Below are positions 23,835 to 46,502 of a stretch of 64,000 nt of DNA, piece after piece. This DNA is from Bacillota bacterium (GTDB taxonomy: Bacteria; Bacillota; Desulfotomaculia; Desulfotomaculales; Nap2-2B). Where the stretch lies: positions 27,182 through 91,181 of the forward strand of contig JBFLZY010000002.1 in NCBI GenBank assembly GCA_040755975.1, written 5' to 3'. A program made the translations under genes and the position numbers. The notes beneath the pieces are model-generated. The model was not told where the DNA came from. It made no database searches and worked only from the letters and a program-made list of their open reading frames with translations. The number at the start of each line of letters is the position of its first letter. Within the stretch, counting starts at the first letter, position 1.

Positions 23835-23895
23835 AAAAACGGGCGGGTGCGATTCGTGTTGAACCATCAAAAGATAGTGGAGCAAAGATCTGGAG

Positions 23896-24732
23896 GTGAG
23901 AAGCATGGAGGTAAAAAGGGAGAGCGGATTGATCCAGTCATTTGACGGTACGGACCTGTTTTGCGCTAAAGACCTGGTAGGCAGTCCCAGCGCTGTCGTA
24001 GTCATTGCTCATGGTCTGGCTGAACACCACAAAAGATACGATTATTTTACAGGCAAGCTGAACAGCTTTGGCTATAGTCTCTACAGGTATGATCAGAGGG
24101 GACACGGGAAATCCGGCGGAGAAAGAGGCTACTTGCCCAGGTATGATACACTTTTTGAAGACGCAAATGTTGTGGTCAATTATGCAAAGCGAGAGAATCC
24201 TAACGTACCTGTGTTTTTATTCGGACACAGCATGGGTGGCCTTACAGCAGTTGGGTACTGTATAAAATACCCGGGTAAGGTGAATGGTGTTATTCTTTCG
24301 GGTACTCTGTGCGCAGACTTTGCTGGACAGTTAAAAAACATACCAGTTGAGTTAGATCCAGTGACAAAGTTTCCCAATAATCTTGCCAGCCTGTTGAGTA
24401 AAGATCCAGAGGTAGTAAAGGCTTACGAGGAAGACCCAATGGTCATAAAAGAAATAACGATAGGAGCTTTTGTCCAGCTTAAAAAAGCAGTGGAATGGTT
24501 TAATTCGGATGACAACCTGCAAAAGATTATCTATCCCATTCTAGTACTTCACGGCGGAGCAGATATGATTGTATCTCCGGAGGATTCAAAGCATTTGTAC
24601 AATAGTATTTCCTCCGAGGACAAGCAAATCAAGATATATGAGGGGCTCTACCATGAGATCCTGAACGAAAAGGCAAAAGACGAAATTGTTGATGCGATCC
24701 GTGATTGGATAGAAAAAAGACTGACCTGTTGA
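23896..24732 (+). CDS. alpha/beta hydrolase, monoacylglycerol-lipase / lysophospholipase-like
   Basis: HGLAEH...RY, DQRGHGKS, nucleophile elbow GHSMGG. AT-richer than its neighbours. Confidence 0.8.
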   Translation: MRSMEVKRESGLIQSFDGTDLFCAKDLVGSPSAVVVIAHGLAEHHKRYDYFTGKLNSFGYSLYRYDQRGHGKSGGERGYLPRYDTLFEDANVVVNYAKRENPNVPVFLFGHSMGGLTAVGYCIKYPGKVNGVILSGTLCADFAGQLKNIPVELDPVTKFPNNLASLLSKDPEVVKAYEEDPMVIKEITIGAFVQLKKAVEWFNSDDNLQKIIYPILVLHGGADMIVSPEDSKHLYNSISSEDKQIKIYEGLYHEILNEKAKDEIVDAIRDWIEKRLTC

Positions 24733-24747
24733 GGCCTTGATCATTAA

Positions 24748-26271
<1,524 letters not shown>

Positions 26272-26311
26272 GAGACGTAGCGAAGGGGAAAGTGAGCGAC
26301 CGGAGTTTTGG

Positions 26312-30488: not shown

Positions 30489-31923
30489 ATACTTGCAAAG
30501 CCTGCGTAAAATGAAGACCAGAGTTTACCTTTTCGGGGAAATAATAGAGAATTTTGTAGACCACCCGATCATCCGCCCGTCAATTAACTCGGTGGCGAAG
30601 AGCTACGAACTGGCCCTGGACGGGCGGTACAACGATCTCCTGACCGCCGCGCCCAGCCTTACCGGCGAAACCGTCAACCGCTTCACCCACCTGCACCAGA
30701 GCACGGACGACCTGGTGCGGAAGGTCAAGATGCTGCGCCTGATGGGCCAGAAGACGGCGGCCTGTTTCCAGCGCTGCGTGGGCATGGACGCCATCAACGC
30801 CGTTGACAGTGTTACCTTTGAGATGGACCAGAAGCTGGGCACCACCTATCACGAGCGCTTCCGCCGCTACGTGAGGTACGTCCAGGAAAACGACCTGGTG
30901 GTGGACGGGGCCATGACCGATCCCAAGGGGGACAGGTCTTTGCGCCCCAGCCGGCAGGCCGACCCCGACCTTTACCTGCGCGTGGTCAAAGAGAATTCCG
31001 AAGGTATTGTTGTGCGGGGGGCCAAAGCCCACCAGACCGGAGCCGTCAACTCCCACGAAATTTGCGTTATGCCCACGATGGCCATGACCGAGGAGGACAG
31101 GGATTACGCGGTCTGCTTCGCCCTGCCCGCCGATGCCCCCGGTATATTTTACATCTACGGGCGGCAGTCCTGCGACACCAGGAAGCTGGAAGGATCCGAG
31201 ATCGACGTGGGCAACGCCCGCTACGGGGGCCAGGAGGCCCTGGTCGTCTTTGACGACGTGTTCGTCCCCTGGGAGAGGGTCTTTATGTGCCGCGAGCACC
31301 AGTTTTCCGGAATTCTGGTGGAGCGCTTCGCCGCCTACCACCGCCAGAGCTACGGCGGCTGCAAGGTGGGGGTCGGCGATGTGCTCATCGGCGCGGCGGC
31401 CATGATGGCGGACTATAACGGAACGGCCGGGGCGTCGCACATCAAGGACAAGATCATCGAGATGATCCACTTAAACGAAACCCTTTTTTGCTGCGGCATC
31501 GCCTGTTCCGCCCAGGGGCGCCGTACGCCGTCGGGGACCTACCTGGTGGACCTTTTGCTGGCCAACGTTTGCAAGCAGAACGTGACCCGCTACCCCTACG
31601 AGATAGCCCGCCTGGCCGAGGACATCGCCGGCGGGCTGATGGTCACCATGCCGTCGGAAAAGGACTTCCGCCACTCCGAGATCGGTCCCTACATCGAGAA
31701 ATACTTAAAGGGCACGGCCTCTTATCCCACGGAGCACAGGATGAGGATGCTGCGCCTGGTGGAGAACCTCACCCTGGGCTGCGCCGCCGTGGGTTACCGC
31801 ACCGAGTCCATGCACGGGGCCGGTTCGCCCCAGGCCCAGCGGATTATGATCTCCCGCCAGGCCAACCTGGACCACAAGAAGAAGCTGGCCAGGATCATCG
31901 CCGGGATTGAACCGGAGGAATAA
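30466..31923 (+). CDS. abfD: 4-hydroxybutyryl-CoA dehydratase family protein, paralog 2
   Basis: ORF 30406-31923; ATG 30466 follows GGAGGTG and overlaps glpC by 23 nt. Motifs CFQRC and YHRQSYGGC. Confidence 0.75.
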   Translation: MSLKTANEYLQSLRKMKTRVYLFGEIIENFVDHPIIRPSINSVAKSYELALDGRYNDLLTAAPSLTGETVNRFTHLHQSTDDLVRKVKMLRLMGQKTAACFQRCVGMDAINAVDSVTFEMDQKLGTTYHERFRRYVRYVQENDLVVDGAMTDPKGDRSLRPSRQADPDLYLRVVKENSEGIVVRGAKAHQTGAVNSHEICVMPTMAMTEEDRDYAVCFALPADAPGIFYIYGRQSCDTRKLEGSEIDVGNARYGGQEALVVFDDVFVPWERVFMCREHQFSGILVERFAAYHRQSYGGCKVGVGDVLIGAAAMMADYNGTAGASHIKDKIIEMIHLNETLFCCGIACSAQGRRTPSGTYLVDLLLANVCKQNVTRYPYEIARLAEDIAGGLMVTMPSEKDFRHSEIGPYIEKYLKGTASYPTEHRMRMLRLVENLTLGCAAVGYRTESMHGAGSPQAQRIMISRQANLDHKKKLARIIAGIEPEE

Positions 31924-32008
31924 GCAATTGCTCGCGTGGGCGTTACTTTTTTAGGTTTTTAGAAAAAATGCCGGATGATTGTTGGCCCGGGAGGTTTCCT
32001 TAGGTTGC

Positions 32009-32043
32009 CTGCCGGGCAGTTTTTTACCGGCCCGCCCGGTTTT
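32009..32043 (+). terminator. Two small tandem hairpins with T-runs after abfD paralog 2
   Basis: CTGC-CGG-GCAG followed by TTTTTT, then ACCGG-CCCGC-CCGGT followed by TTT. Confidence 0.4.
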
Positions 32044-32087
32044 AATGAAATGAGGATTAAACGGCATGTTCGGAAGAGAAACGGATC

Positions 32088-32117
32088 TTGACAGGTTTTG
32101 CTGGTGATTTGTAGAAT
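32088..32117 (+). promoter_or_regulatory. sigma-A-type promoter of nadABC
   Basis: TTGACA (32088-93), 18-nt spacer, TAGAAT (32112-17). The ORF ATG at 32124 sits at about the predicted TSS. Confidence 0.55.
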
Positions 32118-32123
32118 AGGCAC

Positions 32124-33065
32124 ATGAGCACGAGCACGAACATGACGGCAGGGCATGAACATTTTGCGCTGGTAAAGGAAATCGAAAAGTTAAAAAAAGA
32201 TCGCCGGGCGATTATTTTAAGTCATTACTACCAGCGACCGGAAATCCAGGAAATTGCCGATTTTATCGGTGACTCGCTGGAGCTGTCCCGGCAGGCCGCC
32301 CAAACGGACGCGCGGGTGGTTGTTTTTTGCGGTGTTCATTTTATGGCGGAGAGCGCGGCCATCCTGTCCCCCGATAAAATCGTTCTCTTGCCGGAGGAAA
32401 ACGCCGGCTGTCCGATGGCCGATATGATTACGGCCGTAGACTTGCAGCGCTGGAAGGAAAATTTCCCCCGCGCCACCGTTGTCTGTTACGTAAATACTTC
32501 GGCGGAGGTGAAGGCGGAAAGCGACGTGGCCTGCACGAGCGCAAACGCCGTGAAGGTCATCGGCTCCCTTCCGCCGGAGGAAACCGTTTTGTTTGTTCCG
32601 GATAAAAACCTGGGGAGCTACGTCGCCCGCCAGACCGGCCGGAAAATGCACTTGTGGGAAGGTTTCTGCCGCACTCACGACCGGCTGACCGCCCAGGACC
32701 TCCTGGCGGCTAAAAGGGAGCATCCCGATGCCCTTGTCCTGGTTCATCCGGAGTGCCGCCCGGAAGTGATCGAAATGGCGGATGCGGTCGCCAGCACATC
32801 CGGGATTTTGCGGTTTGCCCGCGAAAGCGGGGTGAAGCGGTTTATCATCGGCACGGAGGTGGGGATTCTCCACCAGTTGTCCAGGCAGTGCCCGGGGAAA
32901 GAATTCTTCCCGGCCTCGCCGAAGATGGTCTGTCCGAACATGAAGGCCACCACGCTGGAGAAAGTTCACCGCTCGCTGGTCACTTTGGAGCCCCGGGTGA
33001 CGGTGTCTCCGGACATCGGGGAAAAAGCGCTCCGGTCCCTTTCGAGAATGCTGGCCGTCGTTTAA
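32124..33065 (+). CDS. nadA: quinolinate synthase
   Basis: AIILSHYYQRPEIQ, VHFMAESA and VHPEC are typical NadA blocks. The start could be ATG 32142. Confidence 0.9.
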   Translation: MSTSTNMTAGHEHFALVKEIEKLKKDRRAIILSHYYQRPEIQEIADFIGDSLELSRQAAQTDARVVVFCGVHFMAESAAILSPDKIVLLPEENAGCPMADMITAVDLQRWKENFPRATVVCYVNTSAEVKAESDVACTSANAVKVIGSLPPEETVLFVPDKNLGSYVARQTGRKMHLWEGFCRTHDRLTAQDLLAAKREHPDALVLVHPECRPEVIEMADAVASTSGILRFARESGVKRFIIGTEVGILHQLSRQCPGKEFFPASPKMVCPNMKATTLEKVHRSLVTLEPRVTVSPDIGEKALRSLSRMLAVV

Positions 33066-33087
33066 GGGGCGTGAAGGAGGGGCTTTT

Positions 33088-34671
33088 TTGTCAAGAAGGT
33101 ACCTGGTGAATTTCGACACCCGGCAGCTGCCGCAGGAAGAGTGGGATTACGTTATTCTCGGCAGCGGCATTGCCGGGTTGTATACCGCTTATACGGCCGG
33201 CCGGCAGGGGGCCGGGGTGGTCGTGCTGACCAAGCACACGGTCCTGGACAGCAACACGGACAAGGCCCAGGGGGGGATTGCCGCCGCTCTGGGGAAAGAC
33301 GACTCACCGCACCTGCACCTGGAAGATACCCTGAGCGCCGGGGCCGGTTTATGCGACGAGGAGGCCGTGCAGATCCTGGTTAACGAGGGCCCGCGCCGCG
33401 TTAAGGAGCTCATCGCCCTGGGCGCCCGCTTTGACTCCCGCAACGGGGAACTCAGCCTGGGACGGGAGGGGGCGCACAGCCGGCACCGCGTCCTGCACGC
33501 CGGCGGGGACGCGACGGGCGCCGAAATCCAGCGCATCTTAACGGAAAGAACGGCCGATCTTCCGTGCGTGAGCGTGCTGGAAAGCCATTTTGCAGTGGAC
33601 TTGCTCGTCCGGGAAGGTGCCTGTTACGGCGTTCTCGTCTACGCCGTCGAAGAAAGGCGCCTGAAAGTTTTCTGGGGCCGGGCGGTTGTCCTGGCCACCG
33701 GAGGCCTGGGGCAGTTGTACGAGCACACCACCAACCCGGCGGTGGCCACCGGAGACGGCGTCGCCATGGCTTACCGCGCCGGCGCGGAAGTCATGGACAT
33801 GGAGTTCGTCCAGTTTCACCCCACCGTATTGAACCTGCCTGGTGCGCCGCGCTTTTTAATCTCCGAGGCGGTCCGCGGCGAAGGGGGGGTATTGCGCAAC
33901 TGCCGGGGGGAAAGGTTTATGCCCCGCTATCACGAGCTTGCGGAGCTGGCCCCCCGCGACGTGGTGGTGCGGGCAATCCTGAAGGAAATGAACGAGACCG
34001 GGACGGAAACGGTTTTTCTGGACGTATCCCATCTTGACCAGGAAAAAGTGGCGGAGCGCTTCCCAACGATCTACCGGACATGCCGGGAGTGGGGGTTGAA
34101 TCCCGCCAGCGAGCCCATTCCGGTGGCGCCGGCCGCCCACTACATGATGGGCGGGGTAAAAACGAACCTGCACGGGGAAACCGGTATTTCCGGCCTTTAC
34201 GCCTGCGGCGAGGCGGCCTGTGCAGGGGTTCACGGCGCCAACCGCCTGGCCAGCAATTCGCTTCTCGACGGGCTTGTCTTCGGGAGGAGGATTGTTGATC
34301 ACTCCCGGATCTGCCGGCGGAGGAGGAAGGTTGCTGCCGGCGAATTCGGCTGCAGCCGGCTGAAAGGCCCCGCGGACGTTGACTACGAAGAACTTCGCCG
34401 GTCCCTCCGGCGGGTTATGCAAACGTGCGTGGGCGCCGTGCGTGAGGAGGACGGATTGAGAGAGGCTTTTGCGTTTTTCCAAAAATGGGCGCGCCTGTTT
34501 GAGCATTCCGCAGATGGCTGGGATAAGATGGAAGTACACAACATGCTTGAAGTCGGCCGGTTGATTACCCAGGCCGCTCTCTTCCGCCCGGAAAGCAGAG
34601 GCGGGCATTACCGCCTGGATTACCCGGAACCCGTCCGGGAATGGCAAAAGCATATCCTTTTCAAAGAGTGA
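33088..34671 (+). CDS. nadB: L-aspartate oxidase
   Basis: TTG start after GAAGGAGGGG. Motifs ILGSGIAGL, AQGGIAAA and HPTVL...ISEAVRGEGG. Confidence 0.9.
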   Translation: MSRRYLVNFDTRQLPQEEWDYVILGSGIAGLYTAYTAGRQGAGVVVLTKHTVLDSNTDKAQGGIAAALGKDDSPHLHLEDTLSAGAGLCDEEAVQILVNEGPRRVKELIALGARFDSRNGELSLGREGAHSRHRVLHAGGDATGAEIQRILTERTADLPCVSVLESHFAVDLLVREGACYGVLVYAVEERRLKVFWGRAVVLATGGLGQLYEHTTNPAVATGDGVAMAYRAGAEVMDMEFVQFHPTVLNLPGAPRFLISEAVRGEGGVLRNCRGERFMPRYHELAELAPRDVVVRAILKEMNETGTETVFLDVSHLDQEKVAERFPTIYRTCREWGLNPASEPIPVAPAAHYMMGGVKTNLHGETGISGLYACGEAACAGVHGANRLASNSLLDGLVFGRRIVDHSRICRRRRKVAAGEFGCSRLKGPADVDYEELRRSLRRVMQTCVGAVREEDGLREAFAFFQKWARLFEHSADGWDKMEVHNMLEVGRLITQAALFRPESRGGHYRLDYPEPVREWQKHILFKE

Positions 34672-34693
34672 AAAGAACGGAGAGATTTTTTCC

Positions 34694-35530
34694 GTGCTGC
34701 CCGACATGGCCGCCGTTTATCAAACAGCGGAGCTTGCCTTAAGAGAAGATGTGGGTTCGGGAGACGTAACCACCAACAGTATTATTTCCCCCGATCTCAA
34801 CGTCGCTGCGTTAATCATCGCCAAAGAAGAGGGGGTTGCCGCCGGTCTTCCCGTTGCCGAAGCCGTTTTCCGGCTCCTCGACGGCGCTATTTCTTTTTCT
34901 TCCCGGGTCCGGGAAGGCGAGCAGGTTAAAGAAGGGCAGGCGCTGGCGAGCGTAAGCGGAAGAGCCCGGGCGATCTTAACGGGCGAGCGGGTAGCCTTGA
35001 ATTTCTTGCAGAGACTTTGCGGGATTGCCACCTATACCCGGCGCCTTGTCCGCCTGCTGGATGGATATCCGGTCAAAATCGTGGATACGCGAAAAACAAC
35101 GCCCGGACTGCGCCTTTTGGAAAAGTACGCCGTGCGCGTGGGCGGGGGGAAAAATCACCGCTTCGGCCTTTACGACGCGGTTTTAATCAAGGACAACCAC
35201 TTGAAGGTAGCCGGGAGCATCGCGCGGGCGGTGCAGCTGGCGCGGGCGTCCGTTCCGTTGACCATGAAAATCGAAGTAGAAACCGAAAATCTGGATCAGG
35301 TGGAGGAGGCCCTGGCTGCCGGGGCGGACATCATCATGCTTGACAACATGGAGCCGGAGGCCATGCGCGAAGCCGTGAGCCTGGTGGCCGGGCGGGCCCT
35401 GCTGGAAGCCTCGGGCGGGATCAACGAGAAAAACATCCTCGCCGTCGCCCGGTCGGGGGTTGATTTTATCTCTGTAGGCGCGCTTACCCATTCCGCGCCG
35501 GCGCTGGACATCAGCCTGGAGATCGTCTGA
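34694..35530 (+). CDS. nadC: nicotinate-nucleotide diphosphorylase (carboxylating)
   Basis: Typical QPRTase sequence: DTRKTTPGLR, KDNH, MLDNM. Confidence 0.9.
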   Translation: MLPDMAAVYQTAELALREDVGSGDVTTNSIISPDLNVAALIIAKEEGVAAGLPVAEAVFRLLDGAISFSSRVREGEQVKEGQALASVSGRARAILTGERVALNFLQRLCGIATYTRRLVRLLDGYPVKIVDTRKTTPGLRLLEKYAVRVGGGKNHRFGLYDAVLIKDNHLKVAGSIARAVQLARASVPLTMKIEVETENLDQVEEALAAGADIIMLDNMEPEAMREAVSLVAGRALLEASGGINEKNILAVARSGVDFISVGALTHSAPALDISLEIV

Positions 35531-35860
35531 GGGGTTGGGCGCGGGTCCGGGTTGCCGTTGGTTTGGGGGGCAATGCTCCGGCGGGAAAATACTCGAAAAG
35601 AATACGCCGTTTTGATCGGGATTAAGCTGATCAGCCAAGGTTCTGTGGAAAAAAGCTTCTGGTGTTTCGCGGCCCGGTAGCTTTTTTTCTTATATTTTTT
35701 GATGCCTTTATGCAGTTGAAGTAAAAAACGTTTTGTCCCCTGGTTTTTCCGTGTGCCAAAGTTTTCCGCAGCGTTTCTGATTTAAGGTGATTTTTTGCAG
35801 GAAAAGTGCAAATTTTGTCGAATCTTGTAAAAAATTATTTCCAAAAGGAGGGAGAAATTC

Positions 35861-37066
35861 GTGCTGTTTGCAAACAAAAACGGCGGAAACTTAAAACGTT
35901 CTGCCGGCGCTCCCGGAGAGGCGGCCTTAAACGCCGCCTGCCTGGCCTTCACCCTTGCCCATACCGAGCTTTTGGCCCTGCAGACAAGGCACCAGATCGA
36001 TAAGGTGGCTTCCCTGGCCGCAAGCCTGGCGGCAACGTCCGAGCAGATGGCGGCGATGAGTCAGGAGGGTGCGTCTTCTCTGGGCGTGGTTACCGATACG
36101 CATGCGGAACTGCAGAAACAGTTCGGGGCGAACAAGGAGGAAATCGAAAAGGCAAGAGGTTATTTCGAGCGCGGCCGGGAAGGTTTTGCCGAAGTGATCC
36201 GGGTTACCAGGGAGGTAACGCAAAAACTCTCCGAAATTGAGAATCTTGGTCAGCAGATTACCGATATCGCCGAGCAAACAAACCTTCTTTCGCTGAATGC
36301 AGCAATCGAAGCGGCCCGCGCCGGAGAGCACGGCAGGGGCTTTGCGGTCGTCGCGGAAGAAGTGCGCAGGCTGGCTGCCGGGGCAAAGGAAGCCGTGAAG
36401 ACGGTGAAAAAGGTTTCGGCGGAAATCCAGGAAGGGGTGGCGAGAGAGGCGCAAATTGCGACGGAAACCGGAAAGATGCTGGACAGCTTTTCGGCGATGA
36501 ACGAAGGCAACCTGGAAGCTTTGCGCGTGAGCATGGAGCAGCTCAGTAACGCCGGCCGGTCGGTGAGTGAGGTCTATTCCGCAATGGAACAGCAGGCAAG
36601 CGCTGCGGATTCACTGGCCAAAACAAGCGAAGAGCTTTCGAGCACGGCCAATTTCGGAGAAAGGGTGGCGGCAAAAGTTTTTGATCTTCTGGGGGCGCTT
36701 TACGAAGAATCCGCGCAGAAGGGGAAGGCGCAAGACGGGGTTTCGATGGTGGGCACCTTCGCGGCGCGCCTTACCGACCATGCCGATTTCCTGCGGGGCG
36801 TGACGGCCGGTGCGGGGACGCGGGTAAAGGTGAAGTCCCACACTGAATGCGCCTTTGGCAGGTGGTTTGCGGAAAACAGGGACAGGATAGCGGGCCTGGC
36901 TGAAGTAGACGCGCCCCACCGCGCTTTTCACGTGATGGCCGAAAAGCTTTCCGGCGAAGTTACGGAGGAAAGTCTTGCCGGCCTGGAGGCAGCTTCTCTG
37001 GAATTGCTGAAAGTGTTTTTAAAAGTCGTCAAAAAGGTCGAAAGAATGTATATTGACGAAAATTAA
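35861..37066 (+). CDS. soluble methyl-accepting chemotaxis protein with C-terminal CZB (zinc-binding) domain
   Basis: No TM segment. Signalling hairpin [38 protein letters not shown] pattern HADF...CAFGRW-x17-HRAFH. Confidence 0.85.
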
Positions 37067-37174
37067 GGAATATTCAAATTGAGAGATTAAAATGCCGATT
37101 TACAAGATAGAAATTATTAAAATCCGGGCGGAGGCGGTGAACCCCGGTTCGATAGAGCGGGCGCCTGGGCCGGG

Positions 37175-37218
37175 GGGAGCGAATGGCGCTACAGGCCGCT
37201 CCCACTCATTTTTATTTT
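37175..37218 (+). terminator. rho-independent terminator candidate
   Basis: GGGAGCG (37175-81) pairs with CGCTCCC (37197-203), followed by ACTCATTTTTATTTT. Confidence 0.5.
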
Positions 37219-37258
37219 AAAAGGAGGGCGGTTATGAAGATTCAGTTAATCATAATAA

Positions 37259-37864
37259 GAGCAGGTTTTAAACGCCCCCATGATCGCCTGGCCCTTAGGG
37301 TTGTTCGATTGCTGCGGGGTCAGCGACGGGGCTGCCGCGGCAATTATTGCCAGGCCCGAGATAGCCAAAAGCATAAGGAGCGACTACATTCTGGTCAAGG
37401 GGCTTGGTTTGAGCTGCGGCGCCAGACAGGCGCTCCTTAACGACGACTATGACATGGTTCATTTTGAAGAAACAGTTGCCGCGGCAAACAGCGCTTATCA
37501 AGAGGCGGGAATTAAAAACCCCCGGGAAGAGATAGATCTGGCCGTTGTTCACGACTGCTTTACAATAACAGAGCTCTTGATTTACGAAGATCTCGGCTTC
37601 AGTCCCCGGGGAAAGGCAAAAGAAGACGTGGATGCCGGCTTTTTTACCCTGGAGGGGGGGTTGCCTGTGAATACCGACGGCGGCCTGAAGTGCTTCGGGC
37701 ATCCGATCGGGGCCAGCGGGTTGCGCATGATCTACGAAGTTTACAAACAGCTTCAGGGTAAAGCCGGGCCAAGGCAGGTGAAAAAGGCTGATCTGGGCCT
37801 TACGCATAACCTTGGCGGACACCCCGGACATTTTACCTGTGCAGTAGCTATTTTTGGCCGGTAG
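37259..37864 (+). pseudogene. 5'-truncated SCP2/DUF35-associated-type thiolase (C-terminal half only)
   Basis: RQVLNAPMIAWPLGLFDCCGVSDGAAA...VHDCF...GHPIGASG corresponds to roughly the last 200 aa of a ~385-aa thiolase. The N-terminal Cys-nucleophile half is absent, and only ~190 nt separate it from the upstream gene. Confidence 0.75.
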
Positions 37865-37922
37865 GACTGATTGATTCGGGGTTTCGGCTGCAGGTTTTAC
37901 CGTCCGTACGGGAGGGGTTTTA

Positions 37923-39752
37923 ATGACTGAGTTTACATACGATCTCAGGGATTTAAAGTTTATTTTAAAAGAATGGCTAAATCTAGAAGAGATCCTGAAC
38001 TACGATCGCTTTCAAGAGAACTATACGCTTGAAGACGTCGATTTTATATTAAATGAGGCATATAAAATTGCAAAAGAAATAATTTACCCGCTAAACAGAG
38101 AAGGGGATAAAATTGGGGTTCAATTTGAAAATGGGGTGGCAAAACTGCCGCCGGGATATAAAAAGGCTTATAAATTTTTGCAAGAAAACGGGTGGGGTTC
38201 CGCCAACGAAAGTATCGCGTCGGATGCGCACATGCCGCTTACTTTATACAGGGCATACCACGAAATGTTTATGGCTGCCTGCCCGGCGCTGTGTTCTTAC
38301 ATTAAGTTGACCACCGGGGCGGCGAACCTTATTTACAGGTTTGGCACGGAAAGGGATAAAAAATTATTTTTGGGGAAAATGCTCTCCGGGCAATGGAGCG
38401 GAACAATGTGTTTAACTGAACCGCACGCGGGTTCCGATGTAGGAGAAGCGAATACCAGGGCCTACCCAACCGACGATCCCCGGATCTACAAGATAAAGGG
38501 CACCAAAATGTTTATTACCGGCGGGGAAGTGGATATAACCGAGAACATTATTCATATGGTTTTGGCCCGTCCTGCAGGAGGCGCTCCGGGGACGAAGGGT
38601 TTGGGGCTTTATATAGTGCCCAAGATATGGGTAAATGAAGACGGAAGCCTCGGTGAGCCAAATGATGTTACCTGCATCGCTGTTGAACAAAAAATGGGCC
38701 TGAAAGCGTCTGCCACGGCCATGTTGAGTTTTGGCGATAACGACAATTGCCGGGGGATCCTTGTAGGTGACCCGCCGGATCGCGAGGGCAGATCGCAAGG
38801 GTTAGCCATGATGTTCCATATGATGAATGAATCGCGGATTGGAACAGGCCACAACGCCCTTGCGCAAATGGCGGCGGCGTATTACTTTGCTTCCCGCTAT
38901 GCCGCCGGGCGGATTCAAGGGAGGCCGTTCACTAATCCGAAGGCCGACCGGGTGCCGATCATCGAACACGAGGATGTTAGAAGAATGTTAATGGAAATGA
39001 AATCACAGGTAGAAGGCATCAGAGCGATGATTTTCAAAGGTTTTTATTATCTGGACGTGGCCGAGCATAGCGGCGAGAAAGAAAAGGCAAAAAAGTGCCG
39101 GTGGCTGGCCGAAATATTAACCCCCTTAATTAAAACTTACGCCAGCGAAACGGCCTGGCCGATGATTGCTCAGGCGATCCAGGTGCACGGCGGTGTTGGT
39201 TACACGGAGGAATATCCTGTTTCCCAATATGCGCGCGACGTTAAAATATTAACGATTTGGGAAGGTACCTCATTTATCCAGGCAATGGATTTAGTTGGTC
39301 GGAAGATGAGGATGGAAGGCGGCAGGCCGTTTGCTGCCTGGCTTGGTGACCGGGAAGAGTTTATCGCCAAAAATAAAAAAATTTTTCAAGCAGAGCTTAA
39401 AAAATTGGAAAAGGCTTACGAATGCGTGGTGGAGATCAAGAGAGTTTTGGAAGGTTATTACGGCGACTTTGCCGGGAAAGGCAGGCTTATCCCGTTGTAC
39501 GCTTTGCGGGTGCTTCACTGCTGTGCCCAATTGTTTGTCGCCGAATGCTTGCTGGAGCAGGCAATCGTTTCAAAAAGAAAAATTGAGGAAGTTGGGTCAG
39601 ATTGCCACGAGCATCATTTTTATGCCGGTAAAATTGCCTCTGCAAAATACTTTATTCATAATATACTGCCCAATGTTTATACTTTAACAGAAATAATTAA
39701 ATGTGCGGATGCAAGCGCGCTGGAATGTCCGGAAGAATCTTTCCTTACCTGA
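37923..39752 (+). CDS. long acyl-CoA dehydrogenase with C-terminal extension domain
   Basis: GGGAGGGG RBS. Motifs TEPHAGSDVG and IWEGTSFIQAMDLV. 609 aa. AT-rich codon usage. Confidence 0.85.
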   Translation: MTEFTYDLRDLKFILKEWLNLEEILNYDRFQENYTLEDVDFILNEAYKIAKEIIYPLNREGDKIGVQFENGVAKLPPGYKKAYKFLQENGWGSANESIASDAHMPLTLYRAYHEMFMAACPALCSYIKLTTGAANLIYRFGTERDKKLFLGKMLSGQWSGTMCLTEPHAGSDVGEANTRAYPTDDPRIYKIKGTKMFITGGEVDITENIIHMVLARPAGGAPGTKGLGLYIVPKIWVNEDGSLGEPNDVTCIAVEQKMGLKASATAMLSFGDNDNCRGILVGDPPDREGRSQGLAMMFHMMNESRIGTGHNALAQMAAAYYFASRYAAGRIQGRPFTNPKADRVPIIEHEDVRRMLMEMKSQVEGIRAMIFKGFYYLDVAEHSGEKEKAKKCRWLAEILTPLIKTYASETAWPMIAQAIQVHGGVGYTEEYPVSQYARDVKILTIWEGTSFIQAMDLVGRKMRMEGGRPFAAWLGDREEFIAKNKKIFQAELKKLEKAYECVVEIKRVLEGYYGDFAGKGRLIPLYALRVLHCCAQLFVAECLLEQAIVSKRKIEEVGSDCHEHHFYAGKIASAKYFIHNILPNVYTLTEIIKCADASALECPEESFLT

Positions 39753-39823
39753 TTAAGTGTTATTTTAAATAAATAAATGTAGGAAGGAAATATTTTAAAT
39801 AGGAAATAGGGGTTGTGAAAGAG

Positions 39824-40705
39824 ATGATTAAAATAGAAAATATTTGCGTGGTCGGAGCGGGCAATATGGGCCACCAAATAGCTCTTTGCGCCGCAATAGC
39901 CGGGTTTAAGGTAAAATGTTGCGATATCAATGAAGAAATATTGCTAAAGGCTAAGGAGTTTGCGGATAAATACCTTTCAGAGCGGGTAGCTAAGGGCAAG
40001 CTTTCCCGGGAAGTTGCGGAAGGCGCACGGTCCAACATATCCTTTACCACGGGTTTAAAAGAAGCTGCCTGTGACGCTGATTTAGTTATCGAAGCTGTGC
40101 TGGAAAAACTGGATCTCAAAAGAAAAATCTTTTCTCAGCTGGATGAAATTTGCCCGCCGCACACTATTTTGGCAACCAACAGCTCTTACATTGTCAGTTC
40201 AAAAATAGCCGGTGCGACGAAGCGGCCCGGGAAAGTTTGCAATATGCACTTTTTTAATCCTGCCCTGGTGATGAAACTCGTGGAGGTTGTCAAAGGTTCT
40301 CATACGGCGGAAGAAACCGCCGAAACAGTTATGGAAGCAGCCAAAAGAATGGGCAAGATCCCCGTGCTGCTGCAAAAAGAAATTTATGGTTTTTTGGTTA
40401 ACCGGATTCTTACGGCCATCCGGAGCGAAGCTTTATACCTTTATGATTTAGGCGTTGCTTCCTTTGAGGATATAGATAAAGCCGTGGTCCACGGCCTTGG
40501 CCACCCCATGGGGCCTTTTCAATTGCTGGACCTTACCGGGATCGATCTTTCCTACTGCGTACAAATGGAAAGATACCGGGAAAGCGGGGACCCCGCCCAC
40601 AAGCCTTCACCTGTGATCGTAGAAAAGTTTGTCAAGGGAGAATGGGGGCGCAAAACCGGCCAGGGCTTTTATGATTATGCACAAAAAAATACACAAAACA
40701 GCTGA
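39824..40705 (+). CDS. hbd: 3-hydroxybutyryl-CoA dehydrogenase, second (xenolog-like) copy
   Basis: ORF 39815-40705. Colinear with the 4559-5434 product, with long identical runs such as NICVVGAGNMGHQIALCAA and KVCNMHFFNPALVMKLVEVVKG. Confidence 0.9.
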   Translation: MIKIENICVVGAGNMGHQIALCAAIAGFKVKCCDINEEILLKAKEFADKYLSERVAKGKLSREVAEGARSNISFTTGLKEAACDADLVIEAVLEKLDLKRKIFSQLDEICPPHTILATNSSYIVSSKIAGATKRPGKVCNMHFFNPALVMKLVEVVKGSHTAEETAETVMEAAKRMGKIPVLLQKEIYGFLVNRILTAIRSEALYLYDLGVASFEDIDKAVVHGLGHPMGPFQLLDLTGIDLSYCVQMERYRESGDPAHKPSPVIVEKFVKGEWGRKTGQGFYDYAQKNTQNS

Positions 40706-40863
40706 CGGTAACAGCGCTCCAATGCACCTGACAATTCCCCCTTTTCTGGAAAAAAAGAAAGCCAAGCTTTAAGGGAAAGTAATATAAGGCATAAAATCCA
40801 TAACACCTGAAAAGTTTGTATTTCTGTTGCTTAAAATAATTTAAACAGATAAGGTGAGATGTT

Positions 40864-41661
40864 TTGTTGGTGAATAATGAAGAAAAATCTGATGTTCCTT
40901 CTGTAGAGGCAGCGGCAAAAATTCTTGATTTTTTAAGCAGGTATAAACACAGGCGCAGCACTTTGACCGAAATTTGTCAAAAACTCGGGCTAAATAAAAG
41001 TACTTGCTTGCGGATTTTAAGAGTGCTTAAAAAATACCAATTTGTTTCCTATGATGAGGAAACCAAAAGATATGGCCTGGGAGTATACCTGGTGGTTTTG
41101 GGAGCAAGGGCGGCCGAATTTTCGGATCATTTGGAAATAGTCAGGCCTTACCTTCGCCGGTTAATGGAAGAGACCCAGCTGACCAGCGTGCTCCTTCAAC
41201 CGGGGTCTAATTACCGTCTTATGTATGTGCTAAAAGAGGAGCCAGACGCAGGCATCAGAGTGAATGTTACTCTTGGGCAGTATTTCCCCGTAACCACGAC
41301 ATCATTTGGAAAATGTTACCTGGCCTTTATGGATAAAACTGAGCTTGATCGCATAATAAGAGAGGTTGGGATAAGGGAGTTTACGCCTAAAACCATTACA
41401 AATGCAGAAGAGCTGAAGGAAGATTTAAAACAGGTTGTGCGCAGGGGATATGCAGTAAGCTACGAAGAACATACTCCCGGCGTGGTTGGTATTGCCGCAC
41501 CCGTATTTGATATGAACGGCAAGGTGAGCATGATCATTGCCTGCCTGGGAGTGGCAGCGTATATGAGCGAAGAAAGAGTTGCGGCTTGCGGAGAAAAGAT
41601 TAAGGAAATTGCCCTTGAGATAACAAGGGCTCTGGGAGGACAAAAAGCAAGGGAGCAATAG
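40864..41661 (+). CDS. IclR-family transcriptional regulator
   Basis: N-terminal wHTH (AAKILDFLS...LTEICQKLGLNKSTCLRILRVL) plus a C-terminal IclR effector domain. TTG or GTG start at 40864-40870. Confidence 0.85.
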   Translation: MLVNNEEKSDVPSVEAAAKILDFLSRYKHRRSTLTEICQKLGLNKSTCLRILRVLKKYQFVSYDEETKRYGLGVYLVVLGARAAEFSDHLEIVRPYLRRLMEETQLTSVLLQPGSNYRLMYVLKEEPDAGIRVNVTLGQYFPVTTTSFGKCYLAFMDKTELDRIIREVGIREFTPKTITNAEELKEDLKQVVRRGYAVSYEEHTPGVVGIAAPVFDMNGKVSMIIACLGVAAYMSEERVAACGEKIKEIALEITRALGGQKAREQ

Positions 41662-41746
41662 GGGGCTAACAAAAAATGGAGGTGCCTTCAGGAGCGCCGA
41701 AATCAGGATCTGGAACCATCTTTCTCCATATATTGTTGAAATTTAA

Positions 41747-41947
41747 TTACGCCCCCGGGAAAAAATCCGTACGCAGGTAATCTTGCGGGTCCGTGCTCAA
41801 TAAACGGACCACCCTGCCCTCGCCGGGGCCGGTATCCTCAATAATCAGCGGGACTCCCCCGATCTCGACCAGCCGGACGGCCGGCTCTTTCATTTCCTCC
41901 AGGCCTTCAACGACCAGCTCCAGCTGCATTGGTGTATAGAGGATCAT
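41747..41947 (-). CDS. ylzJ: YlzJ-like protein, duplicate copy A
   Basis: MILYTPM...PLIIEDTG...RVVRLLST..DYLRTD.FPGA. 51 of 66 residues identical to the 45363-45575 product. Confidence 0.7.
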   Translation of the reverse strand: MILYTPMQLELVVEGLEEMKEPAVRLVEIGGVPLIIEDTGPGEGRVVRLLSTDPQDYLRTDFFPGA

Positions 41948-41953
41948 TTTGTT

Positions 41954-42349
41954 TTATGCCCCCATATATTTCGGGCAGAAATTCTCCCTGATTTTGTTTT
42001 GCTTTTGTTCCTCGATCATCGCCTTTAGTTTGCTTACCGCCTGCCCGACGCTGCCCACCTCGTCGATCAGGCCGCATTCCACCGCTTCTTTGCCGATCAG
42101 CACCGTGCCGATATCCCGGGCCAGCTCGCCGGTGCGGAACATCATGTCCCGGAAGGCAGCCTCGCTGACCTTCGAATGCTGGATGACGAAGCGCACCACC
42201 CGGTCCTGCATTTTATCCAGGTACTCGTACGTTTGCGGAACGCCGATCACCAGCCCGTTGAGCCTGATCGGGTGGATGGTCATGCTGGCCGTCTGGGCAA
42301 TGAAGCTGTAGCGCGCTGCCACGGCGATGGGCACGCCGATCCCGCTCAT
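41954..42349 (-). pseudogene. 5'-truncated ClpP-family tepA paralog
   Basis: Matches only the C-terminal ~120 aa of the 286-aa TepA at 45642-46502. The reading frame breaks at ~42370-42400, next to IS debris. Confidence 0.75.
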
Positions 42350-42470
42350 GTCGCCGCCAATATCGTTAAAGCCAGTATTATCAAAGGCTTGGGGTTATTT
42401 GAGGCTTCTTAGGCAGTGTAAAATTTCAGTAGGCACCAAAAAGGAGATCGGCCCCCGGAAAGAGAAATGA

Positions 42471-42848
42471 GACCTCACCCTGAATAAACACCCCAAACAA
42501 AAGATAAGGAGGATCGTCAAGCTCCTGCACTATCTTGCAGAAAACTGGGCGGGAATTATTGCCTCGCCGGGAGCCAAACGTCTGGGGAGAGGGGCAAAAC
42601 CAGCACAATTTGGCCCGGCGGATGAACGTCTGGGCGCCCGGTGGACAGTCTCCGGGGGAGACCGCATGGCCCGTGTTTTGGCCGTAAAGGCTAACGGGGA
42701 GCTTAAGCCACTACGTCTTGCGCTGGCCGGTCCAGAACCAGAAATTAAAAGAATGCACGCAGGTAGTCAGGAGTCGCAAAACGAAACTCGCGGATGTGGA
42801 GAAGTGGTTAAGAGCATCCCTGCCTGCGCTAAAAGGGCCATTTGCTGA
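42471..42848 (+). pseudogene. transposase C-terminal remnant (UPF0236 / ISLre2-like)
   Basis: Single frame ...LHYLAENWAGII...DERLGARWTVSGGDRMARVLAVKANGEL... resembles the conserved C-terminus of that family as I recall it. No N-terminal part and no start codon. Confidence 0.45.
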
Positions 42849-42944
42849 CCGGCCGTGGATCAAGTATGTTTTATGGGAACTCAGCAGGCCTTCTGTTCTT
42901 CTGGGGTAGCTTGTTCCCCGATGAGCCTCTGAAGGGTTTAAAAA

Positions 42945-43100
42945 GGCGGCGCCGAAGGGAAGCCTTGACAGCCGGGGACCCCGCAGGTGGTACAATGGTT
43001 TTGGCGAGGGGGCAGTTGATTCTTGATTGCTTGTTCCCCGGAGCCGCCCCCTCGGTGCTTAAACTTAACCACCTGCGGGGTGGCTGTCAAGGCCGCCGCC
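42945..43100. repeat. 156-nt nested inverted repeat (large hairpin)
   Basis: GGCGGCG/CGCCGCC, GCCTTGACAGCC/GGCTGTCAAGGC, CCCCGCAGGTGGT/ACCACCTGCGGGG, and inner CGAGGGGGC/GCCCCCTCG. Confidence 0.8.
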
Positions 43101-43197
43101 GAAAGTTACTGTTTTAAACGGTGGGGTCTCGCGACTTAAAAAATTTTTCGGGGAGTTACCTACTGGATCTTGACACGGAGGGGGGATGAATGGCGGC

Positions 43198-43226
43198 TTG
43201 GTATTCTCCTCCGTCCGTGCTATAAT
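43198..43226 (+). promoter_or_regulatory. sigma-A-type promoter in front of the TnpB remnant
   Basis: TTGGTA, 17-nt spacer, TATAAT. Overlapped by the hairpin CTCCGTC...GACGGAG. Confidence 0.5.
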
Positions 43227-43250
43227 TTAAGCAGACGGAGAAGATGTTAA

Positions 43251-43550
43251 ATGCAGACGGTAAACCTCAAGGCGAAGCTCCTGCCTCCCAATAAAGGCAA
43301 ACTGGAGATGATGACCCGTGTGCTGGACACCTATCGCCAGGCGTGCCTCCTGGTTCCTGGAACAGGCCGGAGCCCTAAACACCACCAGCCGTGCCCACCT
43401 GAACCGTCAGACCTACCGGCAGGCATGTGAGCTGTTCGACCTCAATCGGGGGACGCTCCAGTGCGCCAAGCTCAAAGCGCCCGCAAACCGGGGAATGCCA
43501 GCTAACCTGCGGCGAAAGCCGCCGTCCTGCGACGGGATGCCCCCTAATTT
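43251..43550 (+). mobile_element. tnpB: IS200/IS605-family TnpB (IS1341-type) N-terminal fragment, frameshifted and truncated
   Basis: MQTVNLKAKLLPPNKGKLEMMTRVLDTYRQAC, then +1 frame SWFLEQAGALNTTSRAHLNRQTYRQACELFDLNRGTLQCA. Only ~85 codons remain, followed by small GNRA-type hairpins. Confidence 0.55.
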
Positions 43551-43553
43551 ATT

Positions 43554-43569
43554 GGGGGGGGGGGGGGGG
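43554..43569 (+). repeat. G16 homopolymer
   Basis: Sixteen consecutive G, 47 nt upstream of the tautomerase ATG. Can pair with CCCCC at 43540-44. Confidence 0.95.
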
Positions 43570-43616
43570 AGTCACTCAGGCTAACTTTATTTTAATATAA
43601 GGGGGAGGTGGAAAAG

Positions 43617-43805
43617 ATGCCCGTCATCACGTTAAACGGTCCGAAGCTGACCAAAGAACAGAAAGCGGAAATCGTCAAATTATTTACCGAAGCGGCAAGC
43701 AAAGTAACCAATATTCCGGCGCAGGCTTTTATTGTCCAGATTCAGGAAATGGACCGGGAAAATGTAGGCGTTGGCGGGGTTTTACTCGCCGACAAAGACA
43801 AATAA
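43617..43805 (+). CDS. 4-oxalocrotonate tautomerase family protein
   Basis: ORF 43608-43805. The internal ATG 43617 gives the MPVITL N-terminus (catalytic Pro1), ~62 aa, after GGGGGAGGTG. Confidence 0.8.
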   Translation: MPVITLNGPKLTKEQKAEIVKLFTEAASKVTNIPAQAFIVQIQEMDRENVGVGGVLLADKDK

Positions 43806-43874
43806 ATTGCTAGCGCTTGGTTCGGTTGCCTGTTTTCTTCACAATATGTTTTTTATATTTTGATCTTTTGGAAA

Positions 43875-43908
43875 GATTGAACTCCCCGATTTATTGGGGA
43901 GTTCAATC
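43875..43908. terminator. 13-bp perfect hairpin between convergent genes
   Basis: GATTGAACTCCCC, loop gatttatt, GGGGAGTTCAATC. No clean U-tract. Confidence 0.5.
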
Positions 43909-44048
43909 CTGCTTAATTTCCCCGGCTTTTTTCCTTAATTGTAATCGGTTTCACTCTAAAGCGAAAGGCGATGCCAGGGGGCAGGCGTCGGAACTTAATC
44001 AGGAGTTCCTTTGAGAATATCCTTAAATCGAGGAGTATGCGTTTGGAC

Positions 44049-44585
44049 TTAGGTTTGTTTAAAGGTTTCATAAAATACCGTATCTTTTAAAGGCTTGCGG
44101 GCTGAATCATGTCTGTCCGGCGAAGGGCTTTCTCCGGCCGCATATCCAATAGCCAGAATATTTACAGGCTCGACGTTGTCGGGGATGTTGAATTCTTTTC
44201 TCAATACGTCAGGCTTGAAGTAACAAATCCAGACCGTTCCCAGCCCCAATTCGGTGGCCTGGAGCATCATGTGGTCTGTTACAATGCTGGCGTCAATATC
44301 CACAGTGCTTTTGTTGTCAAAGGGTCTTTTCCAGGCGCTGTTGTGGTCTGCGCAAACAATAATGGCCAGGGGAGCATCATACACGTTGGCGGCCTTTTTT
44401 AGCTTCTCCAGACCGGCCTTTTCGCGCACCACAATCAGGCGCTGGGGCTGGTAATTGACAGCCGTGGGGGCAACCCTGCCGGCTTCCAGGATCTTCATTA
44501 GCTTTTCTTCCTCTACCTGCCTTGCTTCATACTTCCTCACGGAATATCTTCTTTTTGCCAGTTCCAAAAAGCTCACTTTCATCAA
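44049..44585 (-). CDS. nitroreductase-family protein
   Basis: RRYSVRKY and PTAVNYQPQRLIVV motifs. Confidence 0.85.
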   Translation of the reverse strand: MMKVSFLELAKRRYSVRKYEARQVEEEKLMKILEAGRVAPTAVNYQPQRLIVVREKAGLEKLKKAANVYDAPLAIIVCADHNSAWKRPFDNKSTVDIDASIVTDHMMLQATELGLGTVWICYFKPDVLRKEFNIPDNVEPVNILAIGYAAGESPSPDRHDSARKPLKDTVFYETFKQT

Positions 44586-44820
44586 TCCTTTCTGAATCTA
44601 AAATGATCATCATATTTATTATATAGCTGCAATAAACCCCTTTTTTCAACCATTTTGTCACAGGTCTCGACCGGCCCGAATTTCCGGCCAGAACGCCGGG
44701 AAAGTTTTTCCCGGGCAGGAAATTTTATTTTCGGGGAGAATAATTAAAAAGTTAAGCAATTTTTTCCCGAGGGCGATCCCGGCCCGTCATTCCAACATCC
44801 TAAGAAAGAGGAGGAGGCTA

Positions 44821-45249
44821 ATGAGCTTAAAGGAAATCATCGAATTTGCGAACCAGAATCCTGTTTGCTATGTAGCGACCGCGGAAGGGGATCAACCGAG
44901 AGTCAGGGGTTTTTCCATGTGGTTTGCGGACGAAACCGGCTTTTACTTTCAAACAGGTACACCGAAACGCATCTACGAGCAACTGATGAAAAACCCTAAA
45001 ATAGAAGTCTGCTTTTATGCCCAGGGACCTTCTCCGGGACCGGGTAAAATGTTGAGAGTTTCGGGTACGGTAGAGTTCATCAATGATATAGACTTGAAGA
45101 AAAGGGTGATGAGCGAGAGACCTTTTCTAAAAGCCATGGGCTACGATTATGATTCCCTGGTGATATTCCGCATCTCTAGGGGTGAAGCGTATTTCTGGAC
45201 GAGGGAAAACAGTTTGAAGGAAAAGGAGATCCAAACTGTGAAGTTCTAG
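44821..45249 (+). CDS. pyridoxamine 5'-phosphate oxidase-fold FMN-binding protein
   Basis: GAGGAGGAGG RBS. The N-terminus ...NPVCYVATAEGDQPRVRGF and the 142-aa size fit the split-barrel family. Confidence 0.7.
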   Translation: MSLKEIIEFANQNPVCYVATAEGDQPRVRGFSMWFADETGFYFQTGTPKRIYEQLMKNPKIEVCFYAQGPSPGPGKMLRVSGTVEFINDIDLKKRVMSERPFLKAMGYDYDSLVIFRISRGEAYFWTRENSLKEKEIQTVKF

Positions 45250-45362
45250 TGAGTTTTTGCCCTGGGTGGGAAAAAAGCCTGGGAGCCTGTTATAAATAAC
45301 CGCCTGGGATAAAGCATAGTAGATGCTGTCTTGGGGGAAAACACCCCTTGGCGGAAGGTGTT

Positions 45363-45575
45363 TCAATATCTAACCACCGCCCCAGGGAAAAGATCTGTGC
45401 GCAGGTAATCTTCCGGTTCCGTGCTGAGGAGCCTGACCACCCTTCCTCTGCCGGAACCGGTATCCTCAATGATTAGAGGGATTCCTTCCCAAAATACCAG
45501 ACGGGTTACCGGTTGTTTCATCTCTTCAAAGCCTTCCGTAACCAGCTCCAGCGGCATGGGCGTGTATAAAATCAT
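45363..45575 (-). CDS. ylzJ: YlzJ-like protein (intact locus)
   Basis: MILYTPMPLELV...; lies immediately downstream of tepA on the - strand. Confidence 0.8.
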   Translation of the reverse strand: MILYTPMPLELVTEGFEEMKQPVTRLVFWEGIPLIIEDTGSGRGRVVRLLSTEPEDYLRTDLFPGAVVRY

Positions 45576-45641
45576 CCGGTTTGCACCTTCTTAACTTTTT
45601 TCTTAAATAAATCCGGCCAGCTTTATTGCGGCGGGGCAAAA

Positions 45642-46502
45642 TTACGCCGGCGCCCCGGCGTTTTGCTTTTGCTCCTCGATCATCGCCTTTAGTTTGCTTA
45701 CCGCCTGCCCGACGCTGCCCACCTCGTCGATCAGCCCGCATTCCACCGCTTCCCTGCCGATCAGCACCGTGCCGATGTCCCTGGCCAGCTCCCCGCTCCT
45801 GAACATCATTTCCCGGAAGGCGGCCTCGCTGATCCGGGAGTGCTCGACGATAAAACGCACCACCCTGTCCTGCATTTTCTCTAAATATTCCCACGTCTGG
45901 GGCACGCCGATGATCAAGCCGTTTAGCCGGATGGGGTGGATGGTCATGCTGGCGGTATGGGTAATAAAGGAATATCTGGCTGATACTGCCACTGGTACAC
46001 CGATGCTATGCCCCCCGCCCAGCACGATGGAAACCGTGGGCTTGGAGAGGCCGGCAATCATCTCGGCGATGGCCAGCCCCGCTTCCACATCGCCGCCGAC
46101 GGTATTTAAAACCACCAACACCCCTTCAATTTCCGGGCTCTGTTCCAGGGCTACCAGTTGCGGCAGGAGGTGTTCGTACTTGGTCGTTTTGTTCTGGGGC
46201 GGTAAAACCAGGTGCCCTTCGATCTGGCCGACGATGGTCAGGCAATGGATATTGCTTTTAATCTCCGGCAGCGTATTCGTCCCCAGTTCCTTTAACGCCT
46301 GCATGCTTTCCTTACGCTGCCCCTGAACGCGTTTTGGCGCCGGCGGACCGCCGGGGTGGGGAAGCTCGGGCCGCTTTGGCTCCTCTCCGGGTTCTTCCGG
46401 CGGTTGCCCAGGGTCATACTCAGGAGCAAATCCAGGTTCAAGATCAGGATCGGGCGGAAACTCCTCCTGGTTGAGCAGGCGCTTCCCGGACTCTCCAGGC
46501 AT
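45642..46502 (-). CDS. tepA: ClpP-family translocation-enhancing protein TepA-like, with Pro/Glu-rich N-terminal extension
   Basis: ClpP/crotonase-fold core [10 protein letters not shown]...[10 protein letters not shown]...[15 protein letters not shown]. 286 aa. Confidence 0.8.

Follow-up and report, generated by a model that had tools for sequence, protein, structure and literature searches.

Probable displacement of gene ends by foreign DNA

Homology-facilitated illegitimate recombination (HFIR) has been described in natural transformation (de Vries and Wackernagel, 2002; Prudhomme et al., 2002; Meier and Wackernagel, 2003; all as cited in PMC5361080), and it has been proposed to account for the way in which effector 3′ ends become displaced, together with immunity genes, in type VI secretion system (T6SS) and Rhs loci (PMC5361080). 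C-terminal displacement that leaves orphan modules is known from Rhs, contact-dependent inhibition (CDI) and T6SS effector-immunity loci (Jackson et al., 2009; Kirchberger et al., 2017, PMC5361080). The stretch analysed here, hereafter the window, comprises 64,000 nucleotides of a contig from one metagenome-assembled genome (MAG) of a Bacillota bacterium. Between positions 41747 and 46502 it carries two copies, one of them partial, of the sporulation and germination module tepA-ylzJ, in direct orientation around an accessory insert. The apparent duplication is the scar of a horizontal gene transfer, ordinary in kind and unusually clean, and represents a fresh instance of a known process.

The closest genome, found in a scan with one genome per species, is another Bacillota MAG (L001; ~95% DNA identity to the window). 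Further members of the clade (L083, L084/85, L087, L172 and L174) were recovered via homologues of YlzJ and PNPOx. They fall into two sequence types, clade A (the native sequence of the window, L001, L084 and L174) and clade B (L083, L172 and L087). The features on which the argument turns are the following:

41747-41947, reverse strand: ylzJ-A, 66 amino acids, Pfam YlzJ; the displaced native gene, intact
41954-42349, reverse strand: open reading frame (ORF) of the truncated tepA (copy A), 131 amino acids, CLP_protease; native part 41954-42340
42009-42070: longest exact repeat, 62 nt, shared with 45673-45734 (longest-common-substring search)
42341-42359, reverse strand: right (illegitimate) junction, from comparison of copy A, copy B and L001
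45339-45362, reverse strand: 3′ flank of ylzJ-B, common to a truncated ylzJ copy of L087 (alignment)
45363-45575, reverse strand: ylzJ-B, 70 amino acids, Pfam YlzJ; foreign, L087-type
45642-46502, reverse strand: tepA-B, 286 amino acids, CLP_protease; chimeric
45642-45996, reverse strand: xenologous tepA 3′ end, ~118 codons, with the clade-B C-terminal extension AGAPA, assigned by identity to clade B
45660-45776, reverse strand: clade-wide conserved block in copy B; counterpart in copy A at 41996-42112
45997-46014, reverse strand: left junction interval, an in-register switch from native to foreign sequence within the conserved GGGHSIGV codons (comparison with L001, L083 and L087)
46015-46502, reverse strand: native tepA 5′ part, codons 1 to ~163, fused to the foreign 3′ end (comparison with L001)

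In its workings the locus resembles the polymorphic-toxin displacement arrays, but it is not a member of them. As in the Rhs, CDI and T6SS arrays, the 5′ part of the gene is kept while a small partner gene comes in along with a new 3′ end, and the old 3′ end and its partner are orphaned downstream (41747-42340 versus 45363-46502), with a conserved stretch still shared between the two. Unlike in those arrays, TepA is a ClpP-like germination protease, the exchanged 3′ end being the C-terminal part of CLP_protease without a toxin domain, and YlzJ (PF14035) is not a known immunity protein. The locus also differs from them in having a single displaced module and an incoming piece with unrelated cargo.

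With insertion-duplication and HFIR the locus shares one homologous junction formed in register and a second one at a short GC-rich microhomology, as well as foreign cargo trapped beside a conserved anchor gene whose direct repeats flank the insert. In classical HFIR the anchor copy of the recipient is lost in part or replaced; here, by contrast, it is kept whole. The locus also departs from a textbook Campbell event, in which the downstream copy should start with donor sequence, whereas ≤19 nt could be of that origin here.

The gene order is that of the tepA-ylzJ operon as it is represented in 2013 work cited in PMC11960778, with a CLP_protease-family gene followed directly by a YlzJ-family gene. 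Unlike the usual operon, this one is a chimera of two lineages and is accompanied by a second ylzJ; functions are assigned by homology only.

Structure of the two copies

The two small ORFs matched YlzJ (PF14035) at E 6e-22 and 1.5e-20, and CLP_protease (PF00574) was assigned to both tepA pieces. A ClpP-family gene is directly followed by a YlzJ-family gene in both copies; the pairing is kept in relatives and occurs once per genome in ~160 loci from spore-forming Firmicutes. No record turned up for the exact protein sequences of TepA-B, YlzJ-A or the truncated TepA-A, and a scan of JGI metagenomes with TepA-B returned distant relatives only (≤75% amino acid identity).

Copy A (41750-42340) aligns with copy B (45378-45996) at ~84% identity, a value also obtained over 545 columns of a gapped local alignment, and the blastn score of the repeat (E 2e-118) is far past chance. 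A repeat search returned a direct repeat, 41996-42295/45660-45959, at 86% together with two ylzJ pieces. In copy A the tepA frame is closed by a stop codon 14 codons ahead of the ATG at 42349. The initial annotation, made from the sequence alone, had described ylzJ-A, the truncated tepA-A, ylzJ-B and the 286-amino acid tepA-B as they stand here. Its counts were exact, with 51 of 66 YlzJ residues identical between the copies and 4 differences in the 117 positions of 41996-42112 versus 45660-45776. The repeats do bracket an accessory insert with tautomerase, nitroreductase and PNPOx genes (Pfam). The identity gradient that it had described between the copies is real: in the alignment, 50-nt windows reach 0.94-1.00 in this tract and 0.70-0.86 outside it. 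The 62-nt exact repeat within the tract is a plausible substrate for excision of a 3.66-kb unit.

The empty site and the displaced native copy

L001 has a single tepA-ylzJ. In L083, L084/85, L087, L172 and L174, too, there is a single tepA, with a full-length ylzJ behind it. The upstream synteny (GT4, debranching-enzyme-like protein, EPSP synthase and cytidylate kinase) is common to those members whose contigs reach there. A clade in which relatives carry two full tepA-ylzJ loci, considered in the initial annotation, is not what was found, there being one locus per relative.

L001 1042-6019 aligns to window 50378-45368 at 94.7%, and L001 5420-6079 aligns to the copy A region, 42340-41681, at 97.6%. 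In a three-way alignment L001 follows copy B upstream of ~46015, where copy A is unrelated, and follows copy A downstream of it, where copy B is ~24% divergent; in sliding windows the identity of copy B to L001 falls to 0.68-0.80 within 20 nt past 46015. The native 5′ part of tepA is 100% identical to L001 over 46300-46015 (285 nt) and 95% over 46502-46250, and only 63-85% identical to clade-B genomes. Native tepA is split at one point into a 5′ part (46502-46015) and a 3′ part with ylzJ (42340-41747), with ~3.65 kb between them, and relative to L001 native sequence has been neither lost nor duplicated beyond ~8 nt.

The outgroups L084 and L174 have the same 5′ type joined to A-type 3′ sequence, at 91-94% identity in H1 (the 220 nt after the left junction, 45997-45777, upstream of the 117-nt tract) and 88-92% in ylzJ. 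Since both are single-copy, with a native-type 5′ part and an A-type 3′ part, the event reads as an insertion in the window lineage and not as a deletion in L001, and by this comparison the single-copy A-type arrangement is ancestral.

Of the 660 positions compared between copy A and L001, 14 differ. The tepA fragment has seven synonymous and no non-synonymous differences, plus a change of the stop codon (TGA to TGC); ylzJ-A has four synonymous and no non-synonymous ones, all 66 amino acids being identical; the remaining two are intergenic and lie downstream of ylzJ-A. With 11 synonymous and no non-synonymous differences and no pseudogene decay, the insertion would be recent relative to the split between the window and L001. 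The displaced tepA 3′ end has neither a promoter nor a 5′ part, and ylzJ-A is cut off from the tepA promoter region. YlzJ-A may possibly be a silent spare, and the cell would use the chimeric TepA together with YlzJ-B.

Foreign origin of copy B

Over H1, copy B comes closest to L083 (93% identity), followed by L172 (90%) and L087 (89%), as against 76% to copy A and to L001. The ylzJ-B gene is closest to that of L087 (88% of nucleotides and 86% of amino acids, versus 73% and 77% for ylzJ-A), and TepA-B ends in a clade-B tail, …QKQNAGAPA, which matches L087 and L083. L087 natively has the order tepA-ylzJ-PNPOx-nitroreductase-tautomerase: the trio of cargo genes (43608-45249 in the window) adjoins ylzJ there in the same order and orientation, at 90-92% amino acid and 84-87% nucleotide identity. 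The inserted DNA comes from another lineage, as insertion-duplication and HFIR require (89-93% to clade B versus 76% to the resident sequence in H1; synteny with L087).

Judged by these identities, the duplicate in copy B is xenologous and derives from a clade-B lineage that already had the three cargo genes beside ylzJ. The old duplication suggested in the initial annotation does not hold, given that the repeat part of copy B is not derived from copy A; the alternative named there, the homologous-recombination scar of an island, fits a single-copy L001 and a foreign 3′ part in copy B.

Junctions

At the left junction the last base identical to L001 is 46015 and the first mismatch 46014, and clear clade-B sequence (L083/L087-like) begins at 45996. 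This joint keeps the reading frame, and tepA remains a full-length, chimeric ORF. The right junction reads, in order, the insert down to 42360, the 8-nt microhomology TGGCGGCG at 42352-42359 (native counterpart TGGGCGGCGG), 11 nt of scrambled filler at 42341-42351, and native sequence from 42340. A maximum of 19 nt of copy A (42341-42359) could be donor sequence, and these match neither type well. In native tepA coordinates the two junctions coincide, which speaks for resolution where the homology ends and against two independent break points. The GC content is 0.42-0.58 within the insert and 0.38-0.60 around it, without a clear step at either edge; a closely related donor would lead one to expect this.

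Parts of the interior are represented independently by Logan contigs. The match over 43742-45702 is 100% identical, and the one over 42454-43633 is identical except for the length of one poly-G run. The unitigs L081 and L082 end inside the 117-nt tract.

The conserved block at the 3′ end of tepA

Among all eight clade sequences, including pairs of single-copy genomes, the final ~39 codons of tepA (117 nt) reach 89-98% identity, compared with 76-81% between the two clades for the 220 nt beside them. In cross-clade pairs of single-copy genomes the tract has 5-6 synonymous differences per 35-37 codons (~5-13 of 117 nt differ, 89-96% identity) and the adjacent segment 24-26 per 54-58 codons (four non-independent pairs, each with Fisher p ~0.003). 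Between copies A and B the tract has 2 synonymous differences in 37 codons among its 4 in 117 nt. Since the same gradient is present between orthologues of single-copy genomes, conversion between the copies is not needed to produce it, and the recent conversion tract proposed in the initial annotation becomes dispensable. For annotators this is a caution: a local peak of identity between repeats need not mean gene conversion, because here the same peak occurs between orthologues of different genomes.

Only three sites in the tract are diagnostic of the clades. At two of them (45762 and 45671) copy B is A-like, and at the third (45735) it is B-like; a micro-conversion of ≤74 nt may have taken place within the tract. 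The block is conserved at synonymous sites across sub-clades that are otherwise ~24% divergent (L001, L083, L084, L087, L172 and L174). A search for an RNA structure that would explain the conservation found zero covarying pairs in the tract.

Proposed mechanism and alternative explanations

The reading that we prefer, with a probability of roughly 0.7, is that native tepA received, at a single point, a segment of ~3.65 kb from a related but separate lineage within the same Desulfotomaculales-like clade. The segment would have carried the last ~118 codons of tepA, ylzJ, the PNPOx-nitroreductase-tautomerase genes, a TnpB-type remnant and ~0.9 kb without a match. Its tepA 3′ end is shown to have paired with the resident one, giving the left joint in register, and its other end to have been joined illegitimately at this very position of tepA, through the 8-nt microhomology. 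Both the tepA 3′ end of the recipient and its ylzJ were thereby moved 3.6 kb downstream, whole, yet separated from the 5′ part of tepA. One homologous and one microhomology joint, with direct repeats of the arm flanking the cargo, are the signature of a Campbell-type insertion-duplication, that is, of one-sided homology-facilitated recombination, and an event of this type is the probable one. Resolution at the border of homology could have started from a fragment closed into a circle, from pairing in an ends-in configuration, or from the repair of a break with the foreign DNA as template.

The locus would be a clean natural example of foreign DNA trapped beside a conserved gene through one-sided homology, with both junctions preserved to the nucleotide, a close relative (L001) showing the empty site and another (L087) the donor-type gene order. 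It suggests that 3′-end displacement, best known from toxin loci, is possible in a housekeeping sporulation and germination operon, the outcome being a chimeric protease with two divergent YlzJ partners.

Several points weigh against an insertion of this kind. It requires a crossover exactly at the left border of homology, and the simple Campbell model expects copy A to start with donor sequence, which at most 19 nt could be. It presupposes a route of uptake, by competence or otherwise, and a circular or linear intermediate. The A-like state of copy B at two of the three diagnostic sites indicates that some conversion may have occurred as well. The true donor is unsampled, the best matches being only 84-93% identical, and the segments are mosaic, with H1 nearest to L083 and ylzJ nearest to L087. 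The window is also a MAG contig, and no independent contig crosses either junction, L081, L082 and L171 covering only 43742-45702 and 42454-43633.

This last point invites the suspicion of an assembly artefact, either a chimera of two strains (A-type and B-type) at shared k-mers or a wrongly resolved repeat in what is really a single-copy chromosome combined with a 3.66-kb circle. Apart from the MAG origin of the sequence, it could be argued that L081 and L082 break inside the tract, as at a branch of the assembly graph, and that the poly-G length differs between assemblies. However, the 8-nt microhomology with 11 nt of unique filler is not producible from shared k-mers, an assembly path would need to exit native tepA and return to it at one and the same nucleotide, and interior parts recur at 99-100% identity in contigs of two other runs; an artefact is unlikely. 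The polarity of the event might instead be reversed, with two copies ancestral for the lineage of the window and L001 and the insert lost from L001 through recombination between the repeats. The 62-nt exact block could support such a deletion, and several other large indels separate L001 from the window, but a deletion would likely cross in the tract and leave B-type sequence upstream, whereas L001 is A-type over all 660 nt, beginning with the very first base of homology. With the more distant L084 and L174 sharing the single-copy A-type arrangement, and copy A without pseudogene-like decay, a loss from L001 is quite unlikely.

The model of the initial annotation, in which the tepA 3′ end and ylzJ were duplicated long ago within the genome, leaving ~80% identity, and a tract was then recently converted, would account for 4 of 117 differences next to ~24% divergence and for the two A-like diagnostic sites of copy B. 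It is contradicted by the affinity of the repeat part of copy B to other genomes (89-93%, versus 76% to copy A), by the lack of the duplication in L001, the closest relative, and by the same gradient between orthologues from single-copy genomes, and has very little probability left. The architecture would also suit a site-specific integrative element that targets tepA and brings a replacement 3′ end, its integrase lost or acting in trans: the target is restored by the element-borne 3′ end and the original end is displaced, and L087 would be a second case, with the same cargo bracketed by ylzJ copies. But the insert is without a recombinase domain, the junction sequences differ and share no identical core repeat, and the L087 event lies at ylzJ codon ~17, hence there is no fixed att site. 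Short att-site overlaps are expected of integrative elements, and the ~650-nt replacement arm over two genes is far longer, which leaves such an element highly unlikely.

Two further candidates were rejected. A break in tepA made by TnpB-guided cleavage does not suit a remnant that points away from the junction and is without its nuclease part, and a classical two-ended homologous replacement would not leave copy A behind.

Contents of the insert

The insert contains, besides the transferred tepA-ylzJ sequence:

42360-43250: non-coding distal part, without a match; long hairpin at 42945-43105
43251-43584, forward strand: putative frameshifted N-terminal remnant of a TnpB-type (IS605 OrfB) gene, ~90 codons, assigned through homologues
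43608-43805, forward strand: tautomerase (Pfam)
44049-44585, reverse strand: nitroreductase (Pfam)
44821-45249, forward strand: PNPOx-like gene (Pfam)

The consequence of the insertion for the organism is probably small, amounting to three extra small redox enzymes and a spare ylzJ.

The TnpB-like remnant consists of the ORF at 43318-43584 and of the frame from 43251. In a phmmer search of 1.8 billion proteins this ORF had 12 homologues besides its own 100% match, the best at 58-78% identity. These are short ORFs, one of which (P0144 of L170) is immediately followed by an ORF with OrfB_IS605 and Cas12f1-like_TNB domains, and it is through this neighbourhood that the remnant, itself without a Pfam match, was assigned; the catalytic domains of TnpB are absent from the window. 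The insertion sequence remnants reported in the initial annotation are borne out in part: the TnpB-like remnant is present, whereas Pfam and NCBIfam gave zero matches for all ORFs of at least 40 amino acids in 42350-43600. No recombinase domain was found among the insert ORFs. Just upstream of the remnant, 43198-43226 (forward strand) strongly matches a sigma-70-like promoter (TTGGTA, 17 nt, TATAAT, with TG), and the leader sequence is conserved in the homologue P0135.

For the distal part, 42360-43250, no ORF family, Rfam, plasmid or locus match was found. Searches of this region against plasmids by tblastn and blastn gave no match, and Rfam gave nothing relevant on the insert either at the gathering thresholds or at E≤1. 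A promoter and terminator scan did no better than on shuffled sequence. An independent Logan contig (L171) covers 42454-43633. Within 42880-43130 (forward strand) lies the imperfect hairpin 42945-43105, ~150 nt upstream of the TnpB-like remnant; its RNA fold has an energy of -120 kcal/mol (z = -4.6 versus shuffles), and it has no Rfam match. The poly-G run at 43554-43569 is G16 in the window and G8 in L171, the two being otherwise identical over 1.17 kb, and is either a hypervariable homopolymer or a sequencing or assembly artefact. Between the tautomerase and nitroreductase genes, 43817-44014 holds ~190 nt that are extra relative to L087, including a 34-nt palindrome (43875-43908), and may be a small inserted element.

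A possible second case in L087 and the neighbourhood

On the far side of its cargo trio, L087 has a 5′-truncated second ylzJ at 6222-6414, extending from about codon 17 to the stop and 24 nt of flank. Its identity is 84% to the full copy of L087 and 86% to ylzJ-B, and the flank beyond its 3′ end recurs in the window at 45339-45362; in blastn, L087 6222-6414 matches window 45339-45533 at 85%. A similar displacement seems to have taken place in L087 at a different site. The two independent repeat-bracketed cases hint at a wider idea, which we hold to be doubtful: the cargo trio could be a hitch-hiking cassette without a recombinase, spreading between lineages of the clade with the tepA-ylzJ 3′ end as its homology arm and the 117-nt block as its pairing site. 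With every arrival the resident 3′ end and ylzJ would be pushed aside, and the repeats left around the new unit would let it depart again as a circle and start another round.

In contrast to the constant synteny upstream, the gene after ylzJ varies within the clade (L083, L084, L087, L172, L174 and the window) and can be IclR, FolB, HIT, a 206-amino acid ORF or the PNPOx trio; synteny breaks at the 3′ end of ylzJ. Three segments of the window, 31899-41680, 23837-30449 and 17080-18515, have no counterpart at the syntenic position of L001. The first of them, which sets in only 66 nt downstream of ylzJ-A, shows partial homology (80-82%) to L087 2200-3937. At 37121-37206 (forward strand), upstream of an ORF starting at 37280, lies a c-di-GMP-II (GAG-type) riboswitch that scores 51 bits against a gathering threshold of 40.

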